From the IMG/VR virus record IMGVR_UViG_2687453512_000002: a stretch of 35,348 bases of DNA; one strand, given 5' to 3'. Source of the DNA: a virus. Its lineage: Duplodnaviria > Heunggongvirae > Uroviricota > Caudoviricetes. Under the pieces are notes generated by a model. It was given only the letters and a program-made list of their open reading frames with translations, was not told where the DNA came from and made no database searches. This document shows, in pieces, positions 4,474 to 35,348 of this stretch; the stretch's first letter is position 1; each line of letters opens with the position of its first letter. The position numbers and the translations under genes are program-made.

Positions 4474-4944
4474 CTAATAAAACACCCAGTTTTCTGTTTC
4501 TTGGTTGTGTCCAAAGTTATATTCAATACCTGGTGTTGATGTATCAATATTCTTCATCCCATCAACAAGAGTTGATACAACAGCCAAATCTTGTTTGATT
4601 CTCATCAAATGGTATTTCTTCCGGCGCAATAAACTTTCAATGGCAAGTTTCTTCGTCGGGAATGCAAAAGATCTTTCTGCATTTTTTGCTACTTTCTTAA
4701 TTGCATATCTATTTCTCCTTTGTTTCCATTCCTGTAACCACTGATTTGGTGCTGGTTTAAAATTAACAATCCAATGCGCAGGAACCAACCATGCATAATG
4801 CTCTGTCTGATGAAAAGCTATATATTGAAGTGCGAATATTTTGATTCCATCTTCTTCAACTGTCGCTTGGAATCTCCAGAAAACAGGCATTCCATCATGT
4901 TCAGTTTCTGATTCAGGAAAAGGTACGCTCCATGATTTTGTCAT
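4474..4944 (-). CDS. Hypothetical protein (156 aa), AT-rich moron-like gene between N and cIII
   Basis: Complete ORF in a region of visibly lower GC than flanking phage genes; occupies the ral/sieB-type accessory slot; no transmembrane segments. Confidence 0.65.
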   Translation of the reverse strand: MTKSWSVPFPESETEHDGMPVFWRFQATVEEDGIKIFALQYIAFHQTEHYAWLVPAHWIVNFKPAPNQWLQEWKQRRNRYAIKKVAKNAERSFAFPTKKLAIESLLRRKKYHLMRIKQDLAVVSTLVDGMKNIDTSTPGIEYNFGHNQETENWVFY

Positions 4945-22086: not shown

Positions 22087-23340
22087 ATGGATAACCAATT
22101 AGCAAAAGACCTTGAAATCATGTTCGAAAACTACGTTGAAGGCTTTGAGGCCGCCTGCGTAGTTTCCCGTAACGCTAAAAAATTCCGTCCCGGTGATACA
22201 GCAATGCAGCGAGCAGGTGATGTTCTGTATCGTCCGCAGCATTACCACATGAACATTGAGGAAGGCCTCGACCTCAGCAGCAAAACGCCAACAGCACTGG
22301 TTCAGCGCCTTGTTCCTTCAGTGTTCAAGGAGCCGAAAAACATTCTGTACACTCTGGATGCGCGTGAAATGCGTGACCCTGAGCATAAAACTGAAGCTGG
22401 TCGCGCCGCAGGTATGCGCCTTGCTGCACAGATTGACTCTGACCTGATTTCCATGGTCACGCAGCGTGCTACTAACGTGATCACAATGGCTGACTCAACC
22501 ACTGGTTCACAGGGCCGTGATTTGTGGAACTGTGCGGCAGGTATTGATGCCACCATGACGGCGATTGGTGTGCCACAGGGTATCAACCGCCGCTCTTTTT
22601 GGAACCCCTTCAACTACAAAGACCTTGCTGGCGAGCTTGGTCACCGAGCCTACGCTCAGGGCGCAACCCTGACAGCATACGAAAAAGCGCAGATCCCTCC
22701 GGTTGCTTCCTTTGATAGCTACAAGACCGATATTTCTGGTCGATTACCGAAAGGAAGCACTGAATCCTTGACAGTATCAGGCCAACCTGAACACAAGGTT
22801 GAAGCGAAAGATTCAAATGGTATGCCAGTTGATAACCGACAGGGGACTATTACGGTATCTGCATCTGGCTTGCAGGTTGGTGATGCGTTCACCATTGCCG
22901 GTGTGAATTCCGTACACCAGATCACAAAAGATACCACCGGTCAACCGCAGGTATTCCGTGTTCTGGCTGTTAGCGGAACTACCGTAACAATTTCTCCAAA
23001 GATTCTCCCTGTTGAAAATACTGATGTTGCGAGTCGTCCATATGCAAACGTCGATGCCAAACCGGCAGAATCAGCAGCAATCACCATTCTCAACAAGAAC
23101 GCAGCACCTGCTAACCTGTTCTGGGCTGATGGTTCTGTTGAACTGATGTACGGCAAACTGGCGTTCCCAACTGGTCAGGGTCCACAGGTAATGACAGCAA
23201 CCACCGAGCAGGGCGCTACGCTGATCATGTCTTACTCCTTCGACCACATCAAAGGCGTAACCACTGCGCGTTTCACCACTCTGTACGGTTGCTCTGTACT
23301 GGTTCCTGAATATACGGGCATCGTTATTGCTGGGCAGTAA
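22087..23340 (+). CDS. Major capsid (coat) protein, P22 gp5-like (417 aa)
   Basis: Size and position; followed by a strong terminator as is typical for coat genes. Confidence 0.85.
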   Translation: MDNQLAKDLEIMFENYVEGFEAACVVSRNAKKFRPGDTAMQRAGDVLYRPQHYHMNIEEGLDLSSKTPTALVQRLVPSVFKEPKNILYTLDAREMRDPEHKTEAGRAAGMRLAAQIDSDLISMVTQRATNVITMADSTTGSQGRDLWNCAAGIDATMTAIGVPQGINRRSFWNPFNYKDLAGELGHRAYAQGATLTAYEKAQIPPVASFDSYKTDISGRLPKGSTESLTVSGQPEHKVEAKDSNGMPVDNRQGTITVSASGLQVGDAFTIAGVNSVHQITKDTTGQPQVFRVLAVSGTTVTISPKILPVENTDVASRPYANVDAKPAESAAITILNKNAAPANLFWADGSVELMYGKLAFPTGQGPQVMTATTEQGATLIMSYSFDHIKGVTTARFTTLYGCSVLVPEYTGIVIAGQ

Positions 23341-23347
23341 TTTTGGT

Positions 23348-23370
23348 GGGGCTTCGGCCCCATTTTTATT
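23348..23370 (+). terminator. Rho-independent terminator after the coat gene
   Basis: GGGGC-TTCG-GCCCC hairpin followed by ATTTTTATT. Confidence 0.65.
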
Positions 23371-23381
23371 GGGAGAAGACA

Positions 23382-23570
23382 ATGGCACGAACAATGCTCT
23401 ATAAGCCAGGCAACATGATCACCTGCGGTCAGTTTGCTGTCGATTACATCATTGTTGATGACGAAGAAGTTAAATCTCACCTGAAAAAAGGTTGGGTAAA
23501 AACTCCTGAAGAAACCGCAACGAAGCAAAAAGTGGCTAAGGCGGAAGAAGATGGCGAAAACGAAGGGTGA
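23382..23570 (+). CDS. Small hypothetical protein (62 aa)
   Basis: ATG at 23382 with GGAGAAG Shine-Dalgarno, directly after the terminator. Confidence 0.5.
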   Translation: MARTMLYKPGNMITCGQFAVDYIIVDDEEVKSHLKKGWVKTPEETATKQKVAKAEEDGENEG

Positions 23571-24012
23571 TCTCGTTCTAAAGGCTTTACGAAAAGCCGG
23601 GCTGTATTCCAATGCCACGTTGACAGATGCTGACCCTCAGGCAATTGAAGATGCCATTAATGACCTCGAAGACATGATGGCAGCATGGCAGGCGAAAGGT
23701 ATCGAGCTTGGGTATCAGTTTGCTGATACAGAAAACGGCATCATGCCGTTACCTGACGATGATTCAGGCATCCCTGCATGGGCAAATGATGGCGTCGCTT
23801 TGAAACTCGCTGTGCAAGTGTGCATGGATAACGTCATTCAGCCGTCAGACGCTCTCCTTACCGCTGCTGACAGTGCATATCAGACAATCTGTATCGCTTT
23901 AACCAAAATACCACCACTTGAGCGGCGAAATGACATGCCTCGCGGTAGTGGTAACAAAAGCGCGTTTACGTGGAATCGGTTTTACATCGAGAAAGATGAT
24001 CCGAGTACGTGA
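23551..24012 (+). CDS. Head completion / DNA-stabilisation protein, P22 gp4-like (153 aa)
   Basis: MAKTKGDLVLKALRKAGLYSNATLTDADPQAIEDAINDLEDMMAAWQ… parallels the P22 gp4 N-terminus as remembered. Confidence 0.7.
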   Translation: MAKTKGDLVLKALRKAGLYSNATLTDADPQAIEDAINDLEDMMAAWQAKGIELGYQFADTENGIMPLPDDDSGIPAWANDGVALKLAVQVCMDNVIQPSDALLTAADSAYQTICIALTKIPPLERRNDMPRGSGNKSAFTWNRFYIEKDDPST

Positions 24013-24021
24013 GGTGAATAA

Positions 24022-25440
24022 ATGCCGATTCAGCAACTTCCGCTTATGAAAGGTGTCGGCAAAGACTTTCGAAACGCCGACTATATCGACTATCTGCCAG
24101 TGAATATGTTGGCTACGCCCAAAGAAATCCTGAACAGCAGCGGATATCTTCGCTCATTCCCGGGCATTGCCAAACGTTCTGATGTGAATGGTATATCGCG
24201 CGGCGTCGAGTACAACATGGCGCAGAGTGCTGTTTATCGCGTGTGTGGCGGCAAGCTGTACAAAGGAGAAAGCGAAGTCGGTGACGTCGCCGGAAGTGGT
24301 CGCGTATCAATGGCGCATGGTCGAACATCACAGGCTGTAGGCGTTAATGGTCAACTGGTCGAGTATCGTTATGATGGCACGGTTAAAACCGTCTCAAACT
24401 GGCCTACAGACAGTGGATTCACGCAGTATGAGTTAGGTTCAGTTCGCGACATTACTCGCTTACGTGGGCGTTATGCGTGGTCAAAAGACGGAACTGATTC
24501 ATGGTTTATCACTGACCTTGAAGACGAATCGCACCCTGACCGATACAGTGCACAATATCGCGCAGAATCGCAGCCGGACGGCATCATCGGTATCGGGACA
24601 TGGCGAGACTTCATCGTCTGCTTTGGTTCATCGACTATTGAATATTTCTCCCTGACTGGCGCAACCACCGTTGGTGCTGCTTTGTATGTCGCACAGCCAT
24701 CACTGATGGTGCAAAAAGGCATCGCCGGAACCTATTGCAAAACGCCATTCGCTGATTCCTATGCGTTCATCAGCAATCCGGCAACAGGTGCGCCGTCTGT
24801 ATACATCATCGGTTCCGGGCAGGTGTCACCAATCGCCAGCGCGAGCATTGAGAAAATTCTTCGCTCCTACACTGCTGATGAACTGGCTGATGGTGTGATG
24901 GAGTCTCTGCGATTTGATGCGCATGAGCTGCTGATTATCCATCTTCCGCGCCATGTCCTCGTATACGACGCATCTTCAAGCGCCAATGCTCCGCAATGGT
25001 GTGTACTGAAAACAGGTCTGTATGACGATGTGTACCGCGCTATCGACTTCATTTACGAAGGCAATCAGATAACGTGCGGCGATAAGCTGGAGTCCGTGAC
25101 CGGGAAATTGCAATTCGACATCAGCAGCCAGTACGACAAGCAACAGGAGCATCTGCTGTTTACTCCTCTGTTCAAAGCGGATAACGCCAGAGTTTTCGAC
25201 CTTGAAGTTGAATCTTCAACTGGCGTTGCGCAGTACGCCGACCGCCTTTTTCTCTCTGCAACCACTGACGGCATCAATTACGGTCGTGAGCAGATGATTG
25301 AGCAGAATGAACCGTTTGTTTACGACAAACGCGTTTTGTGGAAGCGAGTCGGGCGCATCAGGAAAAATGTCGGCTTCAAATTGCGCGTTATCACGAAGTC
25401 ACCTGTCACTCTGTCTGGCTGCCAGATAAGGATCGAGTAA
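24022..25440 (+). CDS. Head completion protein, P22 gp10-like (472 aa)
   Basis: Size identical to P22 gp10 and position between gp4 and gp26 homologues. Confidence 0.7.
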
Positions 25441-26141
25441 TGGCTGATTCGAATCTCAACACCCCTGTTATTGTGCAGGCGACGCGGCTCGATACATCAA
25501 TCCTTCCACGCAATATATTCAGCCAGTCTTACCTGCTGTATGTCATTAATCAGGGGGCTGATGTCGGCGCAATTGCCGGGAAAGCAAATCAGGCTGGTCA
25601 GGGCGCTTACGATGCTCAGGTGAAAAACGATGAACAGGATGTCGAACTGGCTGACCACGATGCAAGAATCACCGCAAACACAAAAGCGATAAATCTCCTT
25701 GAGGTCAGGTTAACAACCGCCGAAGGGAAGATAGTTGTACTGCGTAGCGATGTTGATTACTTGCTGGATGAGGTTATCGATATTCAGGCGCATCTGGTCA
25801 CTGTTGACCAAAGACTGGATGGCGTAGAAAGCGATATATCTGACATTAAGAGTGATTACGTATCGAAAACCGTAACAGAATCGCAGTCTCTTGCGTCACC
25901 GCTGGATGTAAAAACATCATATTCAGTTGATGGAATTCAGGTCGTTGGAGCAAGGCAGACCGGATGGACAGCGGCCACAGGCACACCACTTCTTGGCTCA
26001 TTCAACGCTAACCAGTCATACACGGTCGGCACTACGTACACACAATCCGAAGTCGCAGCTATCGCTACAGGTTTGGAGCAGGCGCGGCAGCGTATTCTGG
26101 CGCTTGAAACAGCACTTAGATTACATGGGCTGATTGACTGA
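25440..26141 (+). CDS. Tail needle protein, P22 gp26-like (233 aa)
   Basis: [73 protein letters not shown]… closely matches P22 gp26 as remembered; trimeric coiled-coil heptads. Confidence 0.85.
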
Positions 26142-26596
26142 TGATTACATTCAAACCAACGCGAAACATCGACCTGATCGAAGCAGTAGGAAATCACCCT
26201 GACATCATCGCCGGGAGCAACAACGGTGATGGATACGACTACAAACCTGATTGCCGTTACTTTGAGGTGAACGTGCACGGTCAGTTTGGCGGCATTGTTT
26301 ACTATCAGGAGATTCAGCCGCTTACATTCGATTGCCACGCCATGTACCTGCCAGAGATTCGCGGCTTCAGCAAGGAAATAGGGCTGGCGTTCTGGCGATA
26401 CATTCTGACCAACACCACCGTTCAGTGCGTCACATCATTTGCTGCACGCAAATTCCGCCACGGGCAGATGTACTGCGCAATGATTGGCCTTAAGCGTGTA
26501 GGAACCATCAAGAAATACTTCAAAGGCGTGGATGACGTGACGTTTTACAGCGCCACACGCGAAGAACTAATCGACTTCCTGAATCACGGGAGATAG
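26141..26596 (+). CDS. P22 gp14-like head/tail assembly protein (151 aa)
   Basis: Position after the tail needle as in P22 gene order 26-14-7-20-16. Confidence 0.6.
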   Translation: MITFKPTRNIDLIEAVGNHPDIIAGSNNGDGYDYKPDCRYFEVNVHGQFGGIVYYQEIQPLTFDCHAMYLPEIRGFSKEIGLAFWRYILTNTTVQCVTSFAARKFRHGQMYCAMIGLKRVGTIKKYFKGVDDVTFYSATREELIDFLNHGR

Positions 26597-26598
26597 CC

Positions 26599-27291
26599 AT
26601 GTTATATGCATTTACGCTGGGCAGAAAACTGCGCGGCGAGGAACCTTATTACCCTGAAAAAGGCGGGAAAGGTGGCAGTTCTGATAAAAGCGCAAAGTAT
26701 GCAGCAGAAGCTCAGAAGTATGCCGCAGACCTGCAAAATCAGCAGTTCAACACCATCATGAACAACCTGAAGCTGTTTACTCCTCTGGCTGGGAAGTATG
26801 TCGGCAGCCTTGAGAACTTATCGTCTCTGGAAGGGCAAGGTCAGGCACTTAACCAGTATTACAACTCTCAGCAGTATAAAGACCTTGCAGGTCAGGCTCG
26901 CTATCAGAGTCTGGCGGCAGCGGAAGCAACAGGTGGATTGGGTTCCACCGCAACCAGTAATCAGTTAGCAACAATCGCACCAACGCTTGGTCAGCAATGG
27001 CTATCTGGACAAATGAACAATTACAACAACCTGGCAAATATCGGTCTTGGCGCTCTTCAGGGGCAGGCAAACGCCGGGCAAACATATGCCAACAACATGA
27101 GTCAGATTTCACAGCAAAGCGCGGCTCTTGCAGCGGCAAACGCCAACCGACCGTCAGCATTGCAGCAGGGTGTTAGTGGTGCTGCATCCGGTGCGCTTTT
27201 GGGTGGTGGCATAGCCAGTGCTCTCGAGCTATCAACTCCGTGGGGTGCTGGTATCGGTGCTGGTCTTGGTCTGCTTGGCTCGTTGTTTTAA
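26599..27291 (+). CDS. Ejection (internal virion) protein, gp7-like (230 aa)
   Basis: Gln/Ala/Gly-rich low-complexity protein with hydrophobic C-terminus; gene order. Confidence 0.65.
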   Translation: MLYAFTLGRKLRGEEPYYPEKGGKGGSSDKSAKYAAEAQKYAADLQNQQFNTIMNNLKLFTPLAGKYVGSLENLSSLEGQGQALNQYYNSQQYKDLAGQARYQSLAAAEATGGLGSTATSNQLATIAPTLGQQWLSGQMNNYNNLANIGLGALQGQANAGQTYANNMSQISQQSAALAAANANRPSALQQGVSGAASGALLGGGIASALELSTPWGAGIGAGLGLLGSLF

Positions 27292-27301
27292 GGGGTAATC
27301 A

Positions 27302-28753
27302 ATGGCTACGTGGCAACAGGGTATTAATTCTGGTGGGTTTCTGGCTGGCATCGGTACGCAAAATGAGAATGCGCCAAAGGCAAGCGACATTAACGCAACG
27401 CTTGGTCTGATCCGCGAAAACAATGAACTGGCTCGATCAGGTGCAAATAACGTTGCTCTGACAGGTCTTCGTGGTCTGGCTGGAGTTGCTGATATTTATA
27501 AGCAGCAGCAAAAGCAGGAGCGTAAAGCGGCATTCCAGAAAGGTTATGCGGATGCTTATGCGTCCGGCGACAGGGAGCAGATGCGTAATCTTATTACAGC
27601 ATTCCCCGAAGAGTTTGAGGAAGTCCGTAAAGGCATGGGGTATGTCGATGACGCCCAGCGGGATGATTTTGGCAATCTGGCGCTTAAGGCTCAGGTCGCT
27701 TCGTCGCTTGGTCCGGGTGCATTTGGCAGGTTCATGATGGATAACGAAAAGGAGATGCGTCGTTTAGGTATCCCTCCAGAAACTATTGCGGAAATGCAGG
27801 TTAATGACCCGCAGGGCTTCCAGCACTTCGCAGGTAATCTGGCACTATTTTCTCTCGGTCATGAGAAGTATTTCGATATCAAAGATCAAATGGAAGGTCG
27901 GGATATTGAGCGTGGCAAGTTGGCAGAGACGATTCGCAGCAATAAAGCTGGGGAAGGTTTAAAGGCGCAAAGCATTGCTGTTAGCCGTGAAAACTCCCTG
28001 CGCACTGCTGGAGGTGCTGTTCCTGCATCTGTTAAAGAATATCAATATTTCAACAGCCTGTCTCCAGAGCAACAAAAGACATATCTTCGTGTTCGAGGTC
28101 GTCCTGATGCTGGCGGGGAGAATGTTGTGCAACTGGCAGATGGCAGAACGGTAACGGTTGGTAGGAAGCTTCACGGCGCTGGTGCTAATGCGTTCTACGA
28201 AGGAATAGACAACGAGGGCAATATGATTCGCGTCCCCGCCAGTTCTATTGCTGCTCCGGCTACATCGGCAGCTAATGCACAGAATTACGAAATGAAGAAA
28301 GATCTTGATGCAATTTCTGGCGCATCAATTGACGATCTTGGCTTCATGACAGGTATTACAGGTTCTTCAGGTTCTTTTGCTCTTGGTGCAGATATTCGTA
28401 GCAGGGCATCTGGTGTTGAGGAGAGGAGGCTATACAACGCTGCACAGCGAATCATGGGCAAAATGCAAAATCAGGGGATTGCAGCAGCCCGAGATATGGG
28501 GGCATCTGGCATCAACACCGAAGCAGAGGCCAATAGGTATTTTCAGGGTATGCCAAAGCCTGATTTCTCAAGTCCTGAAGCGCTGCAACAATCAATGCGC
28601 GACATTCAGCAATATACCGACAATTACAACCAGCAATATAACGTTAATGTTGGTAATGGCGGGAAGAAATCATCAAGGCAACAGCCAGCTACTCAGCAAT
28701 CAGCAGGAGGTAGCTACACGTCAAAATCAGGCATTCAATTTACGGTGGAATGA
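27302..28753 (+). CDS. Ejection protein, gp20-like (483 aa)
   Basis: Gene order and size comparable with P22 gp20. Confidence 0.65.
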
Positions 28754-30765
28754 TGAAAGTAACTGCAAATGGTAAGACATTTACCTTTCCTGATGGTACG
28801 AGCACGGAAGATATTGGGTCCGCCATTGATGAGTATTTTGCTGGTCAGTCAGCGCCAACACAACAAGGTGTTCAGCAATCGCCAGCAGACAACTCACTTG
28901 CATCAGGATATGCACAGCTTGCCACTCAGCAGAAGGAAGGACTAGATCGCTCTGCTGAGCAAGGGGCTGTTTTAGGTGCTGCAATGCGCGATGCCGTTAC
29001 CGGTGAAAGCCGAATGACACCAGAAATGGAGAGACTGCAAAATGTTGGGGCTGCCCCTGAGTTGAACTCACTAAGCATGGATGCCCTGAAGGCTGGATGG
29101 TCTCAACTTTTCGGCTCCGACGCGTCTCAGGAAAAGATTCTTCAGAGTATGGGGGCGAAATTAAGGCAGGATGAGAAGGGTAACACTATCGTTTCCCTGC
29201 CATCCGGTGATTATGCCCTGAACAAGCCAGGTTTATCACCGCAAGACCTGACTTCGTTTCTTGCTAATGCGTTAGCGTTCACACCAGCGGGCAGGGCTGG
29301 AACGGTGCTTGGTGCCATAGGGAAATCAGCTGCTACAGATTTAGCACTACAGGGTGGCACCAGCCTTGCTGGCGGAGAAGATATTGATCCTGCACAAACG
29401 GTAATTTCTGCTGGCATTGGTGGTGTTGGCAAGGGGCTGGAAAATACAGTTAGTGCGGTTTCCAGGGCTGTTCGCGGTGAGATGTCACCGGAAGCAAAGG
29501 CTGCTGTCGATTTTGCGTCGGAAAGAAACCTGCCGTTAATGACCAGTGACACGCTGAAAGATAAAACCTTTATGCAGAGTCAGGCTCAGACATTAGGCGA
29601 AAGAGTTCCTTTTTTTGGAACCGGTAAGAATCGGCTGAATCAACAACAAGCACGAGAAAATTTAGTCAGAACATTTAGCGATGGTCTGGGTGGCATTTCT
29701 GATAAACAGCTTTATGAATCTGCGACTAAAGGGCAACAAAAATTCATTGAGGCAGCAGGAAAGCGATATAACCGCATAATTGACGCTATGGGGGATACCC
29801 CTGTCGATCTCTCAAACACGGTAAAAGCTATCGACAATCAGATTGCCGTGTTAAGCCGCCCGGGCAAATCTCAGGATAGAGCCGCGGTAAAAGTCTTGCA
29901 GCAATTTAAAGACGATATCACCAGCGGACCCAATGACCTGCGTCTGGCGAGAGAAAACAGAACTGACCTTCGAAAGCGGTTCATGAATTCAAACGAGACT
30001 GTTGATAAAGACACGCTCCAGAAAGCCAGCGATATTGTCTACAAGGCATATACAGCGGATATGAAAAAAGCAGTATCCCAAAAACTAGGCTCAGAAGAAG
30101 CTGCCAATATGTCTAGGGTTGATCGCTCATGGGCTAGATTCAATGACATGATGGGAAGAACGCGCGTTCAAAAGGCAATAGCCAGCGGCAAGGCTACACC
30201 TGAGGATGTAACAAAACTCGTTTTTAGCCAAAACCCATCAGAACGTTCTCAGCTTTACATGCTTCTGGATGACAATGGTAGGCAAAACGCACGAGCAGCC
30301 ATAGTTCAGAATGCTGTAGATAAGGCGACTGATCCGTCTGGAAATATTAGTGTTGAAAAGTTTATTAATGCGTTACACCGGAACAGGAAGCAATCAGCAA
30401 CTTTCTTTAAAGGCGTACATGGAAAGGAACTGGACGGCGTTATTAAATACCTCAACGATACAAGACACGCGGCAAAAGCGAACGTTCAAAACTTAAATGG
30501 TCAGCAGCTTTATGGATTGTTAGTTGGTGGTGGCATCATAAACGCAGCAGTATTAGCGGGGATGCTAAAAACGGCTGCGTTTGTTGTTCCTGCTGCTGGT
30601 GTCGTAGGAGGAGCTGCGAAGGCATACGAAAGCCCTGTTATACGAAATGCCTTGTTACGTCTGGCAAATACGCCAAAAGGTAGCACAGCATATGACAGAG
30701 CGATCAGTACGGTCACACAATCGCTCACCAGAGTCGCACAGGCATCACAAAAAGAAGCTCAATAA
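28750..30765 (+). CDS. Ejection protein, gp16-like (671 aa)
   Basis: Gene order and size; C-terminal hydrophobic stretch; last structural gene before the accessory region. Confidence 0.65.
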
Positions 30766-30782
30766 CTGGCAGCCACGGATGG

Positions 30783-31133
30783 CTAATTTTTATTCTTTGA
30801 TCTCGTCCACAGGTAAAGAAGAGCAATGGCAAGACAGGAAACAGAGAATAGATAACCTACCTCATATGGTGCGCCAAAAAAATTAGCTATTGATACGGGC
30901 AAAAAAGCCGAAGCGATCAGAATTGAAAGGCAAAAAATAAGCCCAGTAACATAGTTTATTAAACTCTTAAATGAGAAACGTTTTGCTTGATTTACGGTCT
31001 CAGCGAGTGATCGCTTAACGATGGATAAAAGCAAATAGATGGCGACAGTAGCTAATGCCCCTTTCCACCAGTCTGGATATAGTTTTGCGACAATCAGCCC
31101 AAGGAAAACCATGATGACAGACTGAGCATTCAC
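30783..31133 (-). CDS. Small inner-membrane protein (116 aa, 3-4 predicted TM helices); candidate superinfection-exclusion-type moron
   Basis: ATG with AAGGAGG Shine-Dalgarno; strongly hydrophobic; divergent from the 31309..32333 operon; occupies the sieA-type slot. Confidence 0.6.
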   Translation of the reverse strand: MNAQSVIMVFLGLIVAKLYPDWWKGALATVAIYLLLSIVKRSLAETVNQAKRFSFKSLINYVTGLIFCLSILIASAFLPVSIANFFGAPYEVGYLFSVSCLAIALLYLWTRSKNKN

Positions 31134-31308
31134 ACCAACCTCCTTAGTTTTGCGCAGGATACCAGATGATGTATAGGAGTGGGAGTAAAGTTAGTCGGTG
31201 ATAGAACGGTGGTTGCATAATGATATCACGTGACGTAAACTTATTGCGCATAGCGTGTATTCAATGGATGCATAGCTATTGATAATCTCCGATAAGAAGG
31301 AGGTTTGT

Positions 31309-31875
31309 ATGAGCAATGAGACTAATGGGATTGATGAAATGTTTAGCTTGAACGCTGCCAAAGCTGGAGTCGCAATAGGTTTGCTATTACAGCAAGCTTC
31401 TGCGTTCAGTTGTGAGGTGGTTGTTACTGATAACGTTCAGCACGCTTACCATCAATCCTCATTCAGCAGTGAACGGGCTAATGATGAGCTTCATGAGGCG
31501 GTGTCTTCGATTAAAGAATTGTCTCGAATGCTGAAATACGCTTATCGTGTTCTTGCAAACGCTACCGATGAGAATGTAGACAATGTGTTGTCTATCATTG
31601 AACCAGAAAAGTCTCGATTGATAGAGCATCAATTGAGAGGACTTGAAGGGGCAATGAAATCGGTATTCAAAGAAGCTTCTGCTGATTTTAAAGAGATCGC
31701 AAGAGATATCTATATCGTTGTTGCTGATGCCAGATCTGCCGTAACCAACCTGAATAGTCTTATTAAACAACGCTCATGTGTTCCGGTTGTTTTTGATAGT
31801 TCCGTAGATATGGCTGGTTTGCGTGCGCTTGCTGAGCACGGGACTCGTGTGTTTCACTCTGGTAACTTCCACTGA
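31309..31875 (+). CDS. Hypothetical protein (188 aa), first gene of a two-gene AT-rich operon; candidate partner/antitoxin of the downstream YafO-like protein
   Basis: ATG with AAGGAGG Shine-Dalgarno; helical protein with no recognised domain; 8-nt spacer to the next gene. Confidence 0.65.
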   Translation: MSNETNGIDEMFSLNAAKAGVAIGLLLQQASAFSCEVVVTDNVQHAYHQSSFSSERANDELHEAVSSIKELSRMLKYAYRVLANATDENVDNVLSIIEPEKSRLIEHQLRGLEGAMKSVFKEASADFKEIARDIYIVVADARSAVTNLNSLIKQRSCVPVVFDSSVDMAGLRALAEHGTRVFHSGNFH

Positions 31876-31883
31876 GGTAAAAC

Positions 31884-32333
31884 ATGCAAGTAACCGTGGA
31901 ATATAATCAGGATAGTTTTGACTATTTTTTCTCCCCGGTTTTTGTTGAGTTTCCTGATTTAAAACAAACACTTGTAGATGATTTTATCATCTACAAGTCT
32001 ACGGGAACGTTGCCCAGCTATTTTGGCAGAGACACCTCTTATCATCGACCTCCTGATATTGAAGATGCAGGCCTTATGCACCTTCATTTAGCAATTGGTG
32101 AAAATAAATTTGAGCCAATAAAAAATGGCACAGATATCAGCACACCGCAAAAGTTGCAGTGGCATAAAACATCCAATACCGCTCTCGTTTATGCACAAAA
32201 TCTTTTTGATGAGAACAGGTATTCATTGATTGCTCTTTTTCATCCTGTAGCTCACATGTCTGCTAACAATCATAATAGAATGAGAGTGTTAGCAGGGTAT
32301 GCGAGAGACTTTAGAAACACTATGTTTGACTAA
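31884..32333 (+). CDS. YafO-family toxin-like protein (149 aa)
   Basis: Motifs DDFIIYKSTGTLPSYFGRD, LMHLHLA, ALVYAQNLFDE, LIALFHP, NHNRMRVLAGYARDFR parallel the E. coli YafO sequence as remembered; about 37% GC. Confidence 0.65.
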   Translation: MQVTVEYNQDSFDYFFSPVFVEFPDLKQTLVDDFIIYKSTGTLPSYFGRDTSYHRPPDIEDAGLMHLHLAIGENKFEPIKNGTDISTPQKLQWHKTSNTALVYAQNLFDENRYSLIALFHPVAHMSANNHNRMRVLAGYARDFRNTMFD

Positions 32334-32334
32334 A

Positions 32335-32357
32335 CCCACCGTCAGGTGGGTTTTTTA
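32335..32357. terminator. Bidirectional terminator between convergent genes
   Basis: CCCACC-GTCA-GGTGGG hairpin followed by TTTTTT on the plus strand and flanked by an A-rich run on the other side. Confidence 0.7.
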
Positions 32358-32381
32358 TAAGGAGTAATCATGATTTACCCA

Positions 32382-32918
32382 TCAAACAACCCACCAGTTT
32401 GCCTGATTGGATGCCAGCCTTGCAGTTTTTATGGAATTAATTATGCCATGCTCAAGAGCCTTGTTAGCATCCAAAATGGTCGAGTCTGCTATCAGGGATG
32501 CCCACCTAATATGGGTTCCGATGTCGATATTGAACGTCTCAACGAAGCGATCAAGATCGTTATCGAGGCATTTCCCGTACTCTCTCAATCTGGCATGGTC
32601 GGCGGCTGGGGAGGCAAAGCACCATAATAGAGGATGTAACAGGAATCTTGATAATGGGTTTGCGAAACGTTCTGAGCCAGCCAGGAAAACGATATTAGCT
32701 ATGGATTCAACATTGCTTATGTTGTGAGTTCTAACGGTAACAGGGAGTGACTTAAGAAAGTTATACGCAGTAAAGCCAGCAGCAGTTTCCCCTCCCTGAC
32801 TTGATATATGGATATTTAATTCAGTTGCGCCTTGAGATAATGCGGTGAGACAGTGGTTCTGAAGTTGCCCAACAGTGGCAGTGTTAACAGGGCATAAGAA
32901 ATGAATTGTGTGCAGCAT
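32382..32918 (-). CDS. ClpP-fold (S14/S49-like) serine peptidase, 178 aa, translationally coupled to mnt
   Basis: IHISSQGGETAAGFTAYNFLKSLPVTVRTHNISNVESIANIVFLAGSERFANPLSRFLLHPL aligns with the ClpP core (…[42 protein letters not shown]…RVMIHQPL) with Ser and His in the catalytic positions; TAATG overlap with the mnt stop. Confidence 0.7.
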   Translation of the reverse strand: MLHTIHFLCPVNTATVGQLQNHCLTALSQGATELNIHISSQGGETAAGFTAYNFLKSLPVTVRTHNISNVESIANIVFLAGSERFANPLSRFLLHPLLWCFASPAADHARLREYGKCLDNDLDRFVETFNIDIGTHIRWASLIADSTILDANKALEHGIINSIKTARLASNQANWWVV

Positions 32919-33166
32919 TATTTTTCATCCTTAGCATACATGGTCTTTAGCGTCTCAAGTAGCGCCTCTTTGAATTTATCAGCTTCTTGCTGAGCAAATG
33001 ACTCAACTGACTTTGGCGACCTATCTTCATCAATCGCGGCTTGCAAAATCATGACGATCTCGGAGTTAACAGAGCGACCATTTTTTGATGCTCTGACAGC
33101 AAGAGCCTCGCGTAAAGATTCAGGGATTCTTACCGTAGTTGGAGAAATTGACACACCCTTTGCCAT
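32918..33166 (-). CDS. mnt: Mnt-like ribbon-helix-helix repressor (82 aa)
   Basis: MAKGVSISPTTVRIPESLREALAVRASKNGRSVNSEIVMILQAAIDED… with C-terminal …LETLKTMYAK resembles P22 Mnt; divergent from arc. Confidence 0.8.
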   Translation of the reverse strand: MAKGVSISPTTVRIPESLREALAVRASKNGRSVNSEIVMILQAAIDEDRSPKSVESFAQQEADKFKEALLETLKTMYAKDEK

Positions 33167-33189
33167 ATAACACCTTTGGTATTCAATTT

Positions 33190-33242
33190 GATAGCAAAGT
33201 GTATGCAAAAAAATTTTGACTAGATATACTCACTTTGCTATC
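33190..33242. promoter_or_regulatory. Divergent mnt/arc-ant promoter-operator region with a 12-bp perfect inverted repeat
   Basis: GATAGCAAAGTG (33190..33201) and its reverse complement CACTTTGCTATC (33231..33242) flank a TTGACT -35 element. Confidence 0.5.
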
Positions 33243-33280
33243 TTTTGTATTCGAAAAGAGTTGTTTGCGTGGAGGGTAAC

Positions 33281-33433
33281 ATGGAGAAAGAAATAAGTAA
33301 GATTTTGGTAAGGATGCCGCAGTCGTTAAAGGATGCTATCGGTAGCAGGGCAAAGGAAGAGTGCAGGTCGTTTAACTCAGAGGTTATCAAGCGCCTGATA
33401 GACAGCCTGAAGAGAGAGGGGGTAACGGTGTGA
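33281..33433 (+). CDS. arc: Arc-like ribbon-helix-helix repressor (50 aa)
   Basis: MEKEISKILVRMPQSLKDAIGSRAKEECRSFNSEVIKRLIDSLKREGVTV parallels P22 Arc (…NGRSVNSEIYQRVMESFKKEG…); GGAGGG Shine-Dalgarno. Confidence 0.8.
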   Translation: MEKEISKILVRMPQSLKDAIGSRAKEECRSFNSEVIKRLIDSLKREGVTV

Positions 33434-33665
33434 TTCGCTTGGATGCAGTAGTCAAAGAGATTGCGATTACCATTTTAAGACCAAATTTTGTTCATGGCGA
33501 ATCATTTGGCACGAACGAAAAATTGAGAAGAGAAAGAGTATTCAGTGGCAAGCGCACGTTTTCAGAAGTGATGCTTGATGCGGCAAAGAAATCAAAACAG
33601 TGAAGCCCCAACTGCTGGAACAGTCAGGGCTTCGGTTGTCGGTAAATCCGTGGAGAAAAACCAAC

Positions 33666-34370
33666 ATGAATAGTATAGCAATTTTAGAAGCAGTGAACAC
33701 CTCTTACGTGCCATTCAACGGTCAGCAAATTATCACCGCCATGGCTGCCGGAGTTGCATATGTTGCGATGAAGCCAATCGTTGAAAACCTCGGAATGAGC
33801 TGGTCAACGCAGCAAACAAAACTCATGAAGCAGATTAGCAAATTCAACTGTGTTCATATGAACATGGTTGCCGCTGATGGTAAGCTTCGTAAGCTACTCT
33901 GCCTTCCTTTGAAGAAGTTAAATGGATGGCTGTTCAGCATCAACCCTGAGAAAGTTCGTGCTGACATCCGCGATAAACTGATTCAGTACCAGGAAGAATG
34001 CTTTACTGTGCTGCATGACTACTGGACAAAGGGAGAGGCAGCAAATGCACGGAAGAAAACATCTGTTGATGACAGGACTCCGCTTCGTGATGCTGTAAAT
34101 ATGCTAGTCAGCAAAAAGCATCTAATGTACCCAGAAGCTTATGCAATGATTCATCAGCGTTTCAATGTGGAAAGTATTGAAGAGCTTGATGCATCTCAGA
34201 TACCACAAGCAGTAGAGTACATCCACAGGGTAGTGCTTGAAGGTGAGTTCATCGGCAAACAAGAGAAGAAAACCAACGAGCTTTCTGCAAAAGAAGCAAA
34301 CAGCCTTGTATGGCTATGGGATTATGCCAACCGCTCACAGGCATTATTCCGCGAACTGTATCCGCGCTAA
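33666..34370 (+). CDS. ant: Antirepressor Ant (234 aa)
   Basis: Begins [20 protein letters not shown]… consistent with P22-type Ant; follows mnt-arc in the immI arrangement. Confidence 0.8.
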
Positions 34371-34435
34371 AACAAATTCAATCGAACTATTCCGGCAGAT
34401 GTCATGACTGCGGTTATGAGTTCTCCCGTATTATC

Positions 34436-34567
34436 GATATGGCGAGAGACGTTTTAATCAATCACACACGAGATGTTGATATCAATGAGCCAGACGGACC
34501 AACGAATCTTTCCGCATGGATGAGACTTAAGAATAAAGAATTACCTCCTTCAGTACATAATTACTGA
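34436..34567 (+). CDS. Possible small ORF (43 aa) downstream of ant
   Basis: ATG-initiated ORF ending just before the terminator; no Shine-Dalgarno assessed, no family. Confidence 0.25.
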
Positions 34568-34586
34568 CAGATAACCAACGCAACGA

Positions 34587-34609
34587 CCCAGCTTCGGCTG
34601 GGTTTTTTT
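34587..34609 (+). terminator. Rho-independent terminator after the ant operon
   Basis: CCCAGC-TTCG-GCTGGG hairpin followed by TTTTTTT. Confidence 0.7.
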
Positions 34610-34667
34610 ATGCCCAAAATTCACCGTGGCCATGCTGCGGCGATTCTTTGCATCTGGAGCAAATTAA

Positions 34668-34717
34668 ATGACAGACATTACAGCCAATGTGATTGTTGCG
34701 TATTTTCATGAAAGGAG
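34668..34717 (+). pseudogene. Tailspike gene 5-prime fragment (first ~10 codons only), truncated at the junction with rRNA sequence
   Basis: GGAG Shine-Dalgarno then ATG ACA GAC ATT ACA GCC AAT GTG ATT GTT = MTDITANVIV, matching the conserved head-binding N-terminus of P22-family tailspikes (MTDITANVVV…); the reading frame then runs into 16S rRNA sequence. Confidence 0.5.
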
Positions 34718-34997
<280 letters not shown>

Positions 34998-35082
34998 CCT
35001 TAAAGAAGCGTACTTTGCAGTGCTCACACAGATTGTCTGATAGAAAGTGAAAAGCAAGGCGTCTTGCGAAGCAGACTGATAC

Positions 35083-35158
35083 GTCCCCTTCGTCTAGAGG
35101 CCCAGGACACCGCCCTTTCACGGCGGTAACAGGGGTTCGAATCCCCTAGGGGACGCCA
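35083..35158 (+). tRNA. tRNA-Glu (anticodon UUC) in the 16S-23S spacer
   Basis: GTCCCCTTCGTCTAGAGGCCCAGGACACCGCCCTTTCACGGCGGTAACAGGGGTTCGAATCCCCTAGGGGACGCCA, 76 nt cloverleaf with CTTTCAC anticodon loop. Confidence 0.97.
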
Positions 35159-35348
35159 CTTGCTGGTTTGTGAGTGAAAGTCACCTGCCTTAATATCTCA
35201 AAACTCATCTTCGGGTGATGTTTGAGATATTTGCTCTTTAAAAATCTGGATCAAGCTGAAAATTGAAACACTGAACAACGAGAGTTGTTCGTGAGTCTCT
35301 CAAATTTTCGCAACACGATGATGAATCGCAAGAAACATCTTCGGGTTG

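Follow-up and report, generated by a model that had tools for sequence, protein, structure and literature searches.

The DNA analysed in this study, referred to below as the window, is a stretch of 35,348 nucleotides that represents a CUS-3/APEC-1-type P22-like prophage of E. coli ST95. Positions 30500..32400 are 100% identical to sequences from E. coli S88, APEC O1, ATCC 11775 and other strains, mostly ST95/K1, and positions 22500..34696 are 99.98% identical to the S88 prophage. The gene order in S88 is capsid, gp4, gp10, gp14, gp7, gp20, gp16, the small gene described here and a YafO operon, followed by ClpP-like, Arc/Mnt-like, Arc and Ant genes, a 2.9-kb tailspike gene, an acyltransferase, IntS and tRNA-Arg. 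In the accessible part of an earlier comparison, the gene-16-to-gene-9 region of the APEC-1 prophage is drawn as a six-gene ‘ant moron’, of which the window contains the APEC-1/CUS-3-type version; that part of the paper assigns no function to the APEC-1-type moron genes (Villafane et al. 2008, PMC2629481). The small gene and the elements that surround it are as follows.

28750..30765, plus strand: gene 16, encoding a CUS-3-type ejection protein of 671 aa; the sole constant neighbour of the small gene
30771..30794: hairpin AGCCACGGATGGCT with a T-run on the plus strand, between the convergent stop codons of gene 16 and the small gene
30783..31133, minus strand: the small gene, a 116-aa coding sequence with a GTG start and four predicted transmembrane (TM) helices; predicted N-in/C-in
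31134..31170, minus strand: sieA-type leader CATCTGGTATCCTGCGCAAAACTAAGGAGGTTGGT, then GTG; near-identical to the P22 sieA leader, with AAGGAGG at 31145..31139
31171..32368, plus strand: apparent two-gene mobile cassette between the leader and the ClpP-like gene; not part of the small-gene unit
31309..31875, plus strand: 188-aa protein with no Pfam family, PHROG 8416
31884..32333, plus strand: YafO-family toxin (Pfam, 3.4e-22), with a stem-loop and T-run after the gene
32382..32918, minus strand: ClpP-like protease homologue of 178 aa

Several other features lie towards the right end of the window. The ClpP-family homologue follows an Arc/Mnt-like repressor, the two together covering 32382..33208 on the minus strand, inside the immI region, which is identified as a P22-type control region by a sar antisense RNA (Rfam RF00262, 83.9 bits) located between arc and ant at 33599..33665 on the minus strand. 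The ant gene is a single 300-aa ORF in S88 (locus L001, 11167..12069) and is represented in the window by two overlapping plus-strand ORFs, 33600..34370 and 34310..34567. This split is consistent with a 1-bp indel, so that ant in the window is either a pseudogene or affected by a sequencing error. The match to the S88 prophage runs as far as 34696, the point from which S88 goes on into its tailspike gene, and the remainder of the window (34697..35348) is rrn-operon sequence. This end of the window includes 16S rRNA 3' fragments at 34661-34984, with an internal gap relative to the model, a tRNA at 35083-35155 and StyR-44 at 35236-35344. The junction at 34696/34697 is either an assembly join or a rearrangement.

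The small gene and its product

A reading of the window made from sequence only had described a 116-codon frame on the minus strand, a strong Shine-Dalgarno sequence in front of it and a product with 3-4 hydrophobic helices, and all three descriptions agree with our results. The frame at 30783..31133 is present, conserved and GTG-initiated, and AAGGAGG (31145..31139) is separated from the GTG by a 5-nt spacer. The ORF is a real conserved gene and not a chance ORF, because the 116-codon frame and its GTG are kept in all nine DNA variants (74-100% nucleotide identity; E. coli, Edwardsiella and Yersinia), dN/dS is 0.32-0.62 for variant pairs with dS of at least 0.1, and an N-terminal MNxQ is retained in homologues of 37-42% identity. 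The protein is under purifying selection, yet it diverges faster than gp16: membrane proteins that are 37-42% identical adjoin gp16 sequences that keep 62-70%. RefSeq lists a hypothetical protein of 109 aa that starts at an ATG at codon 8, and the conserved GTG-initiated frame together with MNxQ favours the GTG start.

Eighteen positions are invariant in the family (M1, N2, Q4, L11, V15, K17, L18, Y19, P20, L27, F53, Y61, G64, L65, F67, P79, L108 and R111). The C-terminus of the window protein is LLYLWTRSKNKN, and its last codons (KNKN) and stop overlap the hairpin at 30771..30794, which resembles a terminator for the plus strand.

Four hydrophobic segments are found, at about residues 5-19, 25-40, 58-86 and 92-110, with Kyte-Doolittle maxima over 19 residues of 1.57, 1.66, 2.47 and 1.82, respectively. 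Wimley-White octanol windows are favourable at all four segments in each of the 10 family members analysed. An AlphaFold2 model computed from an input of seq­uences numbering seven places helices at 3-18, 22-49, 55-85 and 90-114, at low confidence (pLDDT 57). Lysine and arginine residues are concentrated in the loop at 40-57 (five) and at the C-terminus (three), so the positive-inside rule, which is the sole basis of our topology prediction, would place both termini in the cytoplasm and the turns KLYPDWWK and GAPYE in the periplasm. The protein is predicted to reside in the inner membrane with an N-in/C-in topology. The best-conserved parts are the N-terminus, helix 1 and the first turn, which is predicted to be periplasmic (mean pairwise identity 0.67-0.82); the loop and tail predicted to be cytoplasmic vary most (0.34-0.35).

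Database names for the 116-aa protein are all ‘hypothetical’, ‘uncharacterized’ or ‘putative prophage protein’. Only seven matches at E ≤ 0.001 came from a profile search that covered 1.84 billion representative proteins, and four of them are distant full-length relatives of 115-120 aa with 37-38% identity to the window protein. No credible family was found in Pfam, PHROGs, PADLOC or NCBIfam, and the PADLOC-DB 2.0 HMMs gave no match at E up to 0.1. Relatives were likewise absent from a profile search of the PDB, a tblastn search of 50,697 phage genomes and a scan of representative genomes (one genome per species). A literature search for WP_011703616 found nothing, including experimental or expression data. 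Phage_holin_3_6 is matched weakly and below threshold (E = 0.065; 13.7 bits, where the cut-off is 28.4); this match occurs in only two of 10 family members, beside other chance hydrophobic matches.

Gene 16 linkage and the sieA-type leader

The small gene is convergent with gene 16 and lies 17 bp after it, which bears out the ‘sieA-like position’ that the earlier reading had assigned to it; the corresponding gap for sieA is 22 bp in P22 and 21 bp in HS1. The same arrangement, with a spacing of 17-24 bp from a CUS-3-type gene 16, is found at about 40 loci from E. coli, Yersinia, Edwardsiella and metagenomes, over which the small protein is 37-100% identical. These include a Yersinia enterocolitica prophage, all 18 IMG/VR loci and the loci of the distant metagenomic homologues. 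In every intact context the neighbouring gp16 is 62-100% identical to that of the window (62-94% over the sequence available; up to 100% in IMG/VR loci), and gp16 of this type is only about 30% identical to gp16 of P22.

The gene 16 side is constant, and the upstream neighbours vary from locus to locus. One other P22-like prophage has a LexA-family gene upstream of the small gene. In others (L014) the upstream gene is ClpP-like, 55 bp away and in the same orientation, and for this reason the ancestral arrangement may have been a single leftward operon of an mnt-like gene, a clpP-like gene and then the slot gene.

Of 5,426 complete E. coli genomes, 229 contain the small gene; identity is at least 99% in 61 of them and 90-95% in 167. 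One exception to the gene 16 linkage was observed, in the O111:H8 remnant island that was examined (L003), where the intact gene stands alone beside ykgL and gene 16 is gone; among the matches listed, 11 O111 genomes have the gene at 93.2% identity, as in the L003 copy. Because merely 17 bp separate the two genes, their linkage could be purely physical.

Integrative islands of about 20 kb at yicC-dinD in E. coli and Edwardsiella also carry the small gene. Their content is an integrase, HTH, antirepressor, Ash-family and TOPRIM/DUF927 primase genes, followed by homologues of gp14, gp7, gp20 and gp16 and then the membrane gene; no capsid, portal, terminase or tail genes were found in them. An example is the island of E. 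coli 042 (L010; NC_017626.1 4198135-4217750), and further examples are L002, L004, L008, L009, L013 (Edwardsiella), L035-L041, L044 and L045. The published PICI EcCIO42 is a different element, located at 1.83 Mb in the same strain. Judged by gene content, the islands look like phage satellites with an ejection-protein set of their own, and most E. coli copies of the membrane gene appear to reside in such islands or their remnants.

Translation of the small gene is expected to start from a leader that it has in common with sieA. Over about 35 nt, the window sequence TGGTATCCTGCGCAAAACTAAGGAGGTTGGT-GTG and the P22 sieA sequence TGGTATCCTGCACAAAACTAAGGAGGTTGGT-GTG are nearly identical (the full P22 sieA leader is TTTCATGGTATCCTGCACAAAACTAAGGAGGTTGGT, then GTG), and a clear relationship is also seen with the leader in front of the HS1 type B sieA. 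Homology between contexts ends inside the leader, 7-31 nt before the GTG (window 31140..31164). At least 120 IMG/VR contigs, with loci L048-L126 among them, contain the exact 33-nt leader GGTATCCTGCNCAAAACTAAGGAGGTTGGTGTG. The leader is also found, without the small gene, in about 250 further E. coli genomes, and a sieA-type leader lies at 4832..4868 of L005 (minus strand).

We defined cargo of the sieA slot operationally, as an ORF that starts at the leader GTG and is convergent with a gp16-type gene. The 116-aa ORF begins at the GTG of GGTATCCTGCNCAAAACTAAGGAGGTTGGTGTG and converges with such a gene, which places it in this class. At least 12 mutually unrelated families, including SieA and the 116-aa family, are represented among the ORFs that start at the leader GTG; 11 of the 12 have predicted signal or TM segments, and nearly all of the ORFs are convergent with a gp16-type gene at a distance of 0-63 nt. 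The families and the number of loci at which each was found are listed below.

109-aa single-pass coiled-coil protein: at least 28 loci
129-aa signal-peptide protein: at least 25 loci
62-aa 2-TM peptide: at least 11 loci
75-aa 2-TM peptide: at least 10 loci
SieA types A/B: at least 10 loci
Second 109-aa single-pass coiled-coil protein: at least nine loci
149-aa single-pass protein: at least six loci
140-aa protein with no clear TM segment: at least six loci
116-aa 4-TM family (the window protein): at least five loci
99-aa signal-peptide protein: at least four loci
N7 orf14-like protein: at least four loci
YobH-like 68-aa protein: at least three loci

Individual uncharacterised occupants on the minus strand, apart from the 116-aa family, include a single-pass protein like orf14 of phage N7 (L011, 5516..5836), a YobH-like 68-aa protein (L025, 3619..3825), a 62-aa 2-TM peptide (L046, 2817..3005) and a 109-aa single-pass coiled-coil protein (L047, 2674..3003), each convergent with a different gp16 type. 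The presence of at least 12 unrelated families at one leader GTG points to exchange of coding sequences exactly at the start codon, and the slot thus appears to be a cassette-exchange hotspot in which coding sequences are swapped under conserved translation signals. We found no description of the shared sieA leader and its set of alternative cargoes in the literature searched. The conserved leader GTG also supports the 164-aa start of P22 SieA, which has been called uncertain (PMC10883804).

A sigma-70 consensus scan of the minus strand over 31134..31308 detected no promoter. By eye, a weak -10-like CATCAT can be seen just upstream of the leader, where the -10 of the annotated PsieA of P22 sits; in the window, the sequence upstream of the leader has been replaced by the YafO cassette. 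For P22, 85 bp upstream of sieA are enough for exclusion activity (Leavitt et al. 2024, PMC10883804). A leader RNA that sequesters the Shine-Dalgarno sequence was considered and dropped, the predicted fold being no more stable than that of shuffled sequences (z = 0.30).

Comparison with SieA and other entry-blocking proteins

SieA (PF26849; types A, B and C of Leavitt et al. 2024, PMC10883804) occupies the same slot between genes 16 and 9, convergent with gene 16 and about 20 bp after it. [quoted passage not shown] In contrast to SieA, the 116-aa protein is found only with CUS-3-type gp16, and it is commoner in satellite-like islands than in full prophages.

Despite these likenesses of position and signals, the window protein is not a SieA homologue. 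BLASTP against SieA gave no significant similarity, and hhalign with the family profile returned a probability of 2.2% against the type A profile and 0.08% against HS1 type B. Types A and B of the three SieA types were covered by this comparison, and as a positive control the type A profile was aligned with type B at 99.5% (E = 1.4e-22). The conserved C-terminal cytoplasmic motif of SieA, FxRYPxEAxxFNK (PMC10883804), is visible in our alignment of SieA sequences and absent from the 116-aa sequence. Our local Pfam copy apparently lacks the newer PF268xx models, as gp16 was not matched to PF26808 with it, and SieA homology was for this reason assessed from precomputed Pfam labels together with hhalign. 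PF26849 is assigned to 12 of 13 SieA relatives (the exception is a 106-aa partial sequence) and to no member of the 116-aa family. A membrane protein encoded by a prophage at the sieA position is a known arrangement, and what is new is that this one belongs to a non-SieA family with no functional description.

T4 Imm is a small membrane-anchored protein that acts at DNA entry. The window protein resembles Imm, HK97 gp15, Sie2009 and Ltp in being small, membrane-anchored (by prediction) and phage- or prophage-encoded, but those proteins target long-tailed or T4-type phages, are encoded at other genomic positions and show no family match to it in PHROGs, Pfam or PADLOC. HK97 gp15, Lactococcus Sie2009 (Tuc2009) and TP-J34 Ltp are small membrane proteins that block phage DNA entry (PMC10883804).

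Proposed superinfection exclusion and its alternatives

Superinfection exclusion is the best-supported hypothesis for the small gene because of its location in the sieA slot, its leader, Shine-Dalgarno sequence and GTG, its orientation, the membrane character of its product and its tie to gene 16. The conserved four-helix architecture, purifying selection combined with faster divergence than in gp16, and the intact ORF of L003, where gene 16 is gone, also speak for it. By analogy with P22 SieA, which blocks DNA injection and is the sole characterised occupant of the slot (PMC10883804), we somewhat favour the view that the 116-aa protein is a non-homologous SieA analogue that blocks DNA injection at the inner membrane. 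In broader terms, it is probably an envelope protein, expressed from a prophage or island, that acts against incoming phages. Sharing the sieA slot does not prove a shared function, and among the 12 cargo families there is one that lacks a clear membrane segment.

The sequence-only reading had also suggested that the membrane protein is functionally linked to the YafO-like operon, for example as an effector or immunity component, and had proposed co-occurrence as a check. It had correctly placed the two on either side of a common intergenic region of about 175 bp (31134..31308), with the divergent 188-aa/YafO operon at 31309..32333, and they occur together in 51 E. coli genomes. These 51 represent essentially one prophage lineage (100% identity among the matches listed). 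Of the 229 E. coli genomes that have the gene, the other 178 lack the operon at that place, and outside that lineage most loci lack it: all of those individually looked up, among them the Yersinia, Edwardsiella and island loci, and 12 of the 18 from IMG/VR. Comparison with L014 and L006 indicates that the operon, together with its terminator, is an insertion of about 1.2 kb with defined ends. It is also found without the small gene. The same operon (99.5%) is present in a P22-like prophage (L025) with an unrelated gp16 type and the YobH-like 68-aa slot protein, and the tail region of siphovirus HK639 (L026) contains a homologue of the 188-aa gene (38%), followed by a co-directional YafO-sized gene. 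Occurrence of the small gene away from the operon was an outcome that the sequence-only reading had itself named as refuting. The distribution and the insertion boundaries together lead us to reject the link, and a role for the membrane protein as effector, immunity factor or regulator of the operon is extremely improbable. The 188-aa/YafO pair behaves, as far as these comparisons indicate, as a mobile 1.2-kb cassette. Its toxin gene is preceded by the 188-aa gene and not by a YafN-like antitoxin gene, and the 188-aa protein may be an unusual antitoxin or a regulator.

Other explanations concern the membrane protein itself. Defence systems often use small multi-pass membrane proteins as effectors, and the occupants of the slot are so diverse (signal-peptide, single-pass coiled-coil and 2-TM proteins, and one without a clear TM segment) that they need not all block injection. 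The window protein might then be expressed from the prophage for defence or conversion and act at a step other than DNA entry, for example as an abortive-infection effector or sensor or as an envelope modifier. We regard this as unlikely, given that PADLOC provides no match, that the gene stands singly with no sensor partner kept across contexts, and that the one slot occupant of established function blocks injection. Strict co-occurrence with one gp16 type over 37-100% identity, including in the gp14/7/20/16 islands, would also fit a partner of CUS-3-type gp16 that assists it or that protects the membrane of the producing cell from its own ejection protein. Such a partner would not be expected to have a sieA-type leader and to be encoded opposite to the late operon; phage N7, whose gp16 is 71% identical, carries an unrelated 1-TM protein in place of the 116-aa gene, and the gene persists without gene 16 in the O111:H8 remnant, all of which makes this role distinctly less likely again. 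The small size and hydrophobicity of the protein and its weak match to Phage_holin_3_6 are the points in favour of a holin-like lysis protein or small membrane toxin. The restriction of that match to two family members, the location of the gene outside any lysis cassette and opposite the late genes, and its presence in islands without lysis genes make this function very improbable.

For the favoured reading, injection blocking by a SieA analogue, a mechanism can be outlined. The small gene would be one of many alternative cargoes of the sieA slot, each placed behind the leader, Shine-Dalgarno sequence and GTG and convergent with gene 16. It would be expressed in the lysogen from the prophage or satellite-like island, and its product would form two helical hairpins in the inner membrane, leaving both of its ends in the cytoplasm. 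The N-terminal hairpin and the periplasmic turn KLYPDWW, which are the best candidates for an interacting surface, could then disturb the inner-membrane end of the gp20/gp16 conduit of an incoming P22-like phage or, alternatively, interfere with a host factor that this conduit requires. In either case DNA injection would be blocked, as it is by SieA. For SieA itself, escape mutations map to the C-terminal regions of gp16 and gp20, and P22 SieA excludes CUS-3 as well (PMC10883804); exclusion activity of the 116-aa protein and a target in the conduit are suggested by this analogy.

A more far-reaching possibility, which we put forward tentatively and consider doubtful, is that 4-TM proteins of this kind make up a new class of injection blockers, structurally unrelated to SieA, which act on gp20/gp16 conduits and travel as a unit with CUS-3-type ejection genes in both prophages and capsid-less islands. 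The sieA leader would in that case mark an exchange hotspot stocked with largely unexplored entry-level defences, possibly matched to ejection-protein variants in an arms race of exclusion and escape. The islands hint in addition that satellites may bring their own module for DNA delivery and exclusion.

These results remove a tempting link between the membrane gene and the YafO toxin operon and offer new material on how SieA acts on the P22 ejection-protein conduit at the inner membrane (PMC10883804). If the 116-aa protein also blocks injection, it would be an independent and smaller probe of the step that SieA blocks. With the leader as a simple sequence handle, a dozen candidate exclusion proteins, as yet uncharacterised, can be retrieved from prophages. 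The ST95/K1 lineage of ExPEC and APEC is among the carriers of the gene, which could affect the susceptibility of these strains to K1-specific P22-like phages.
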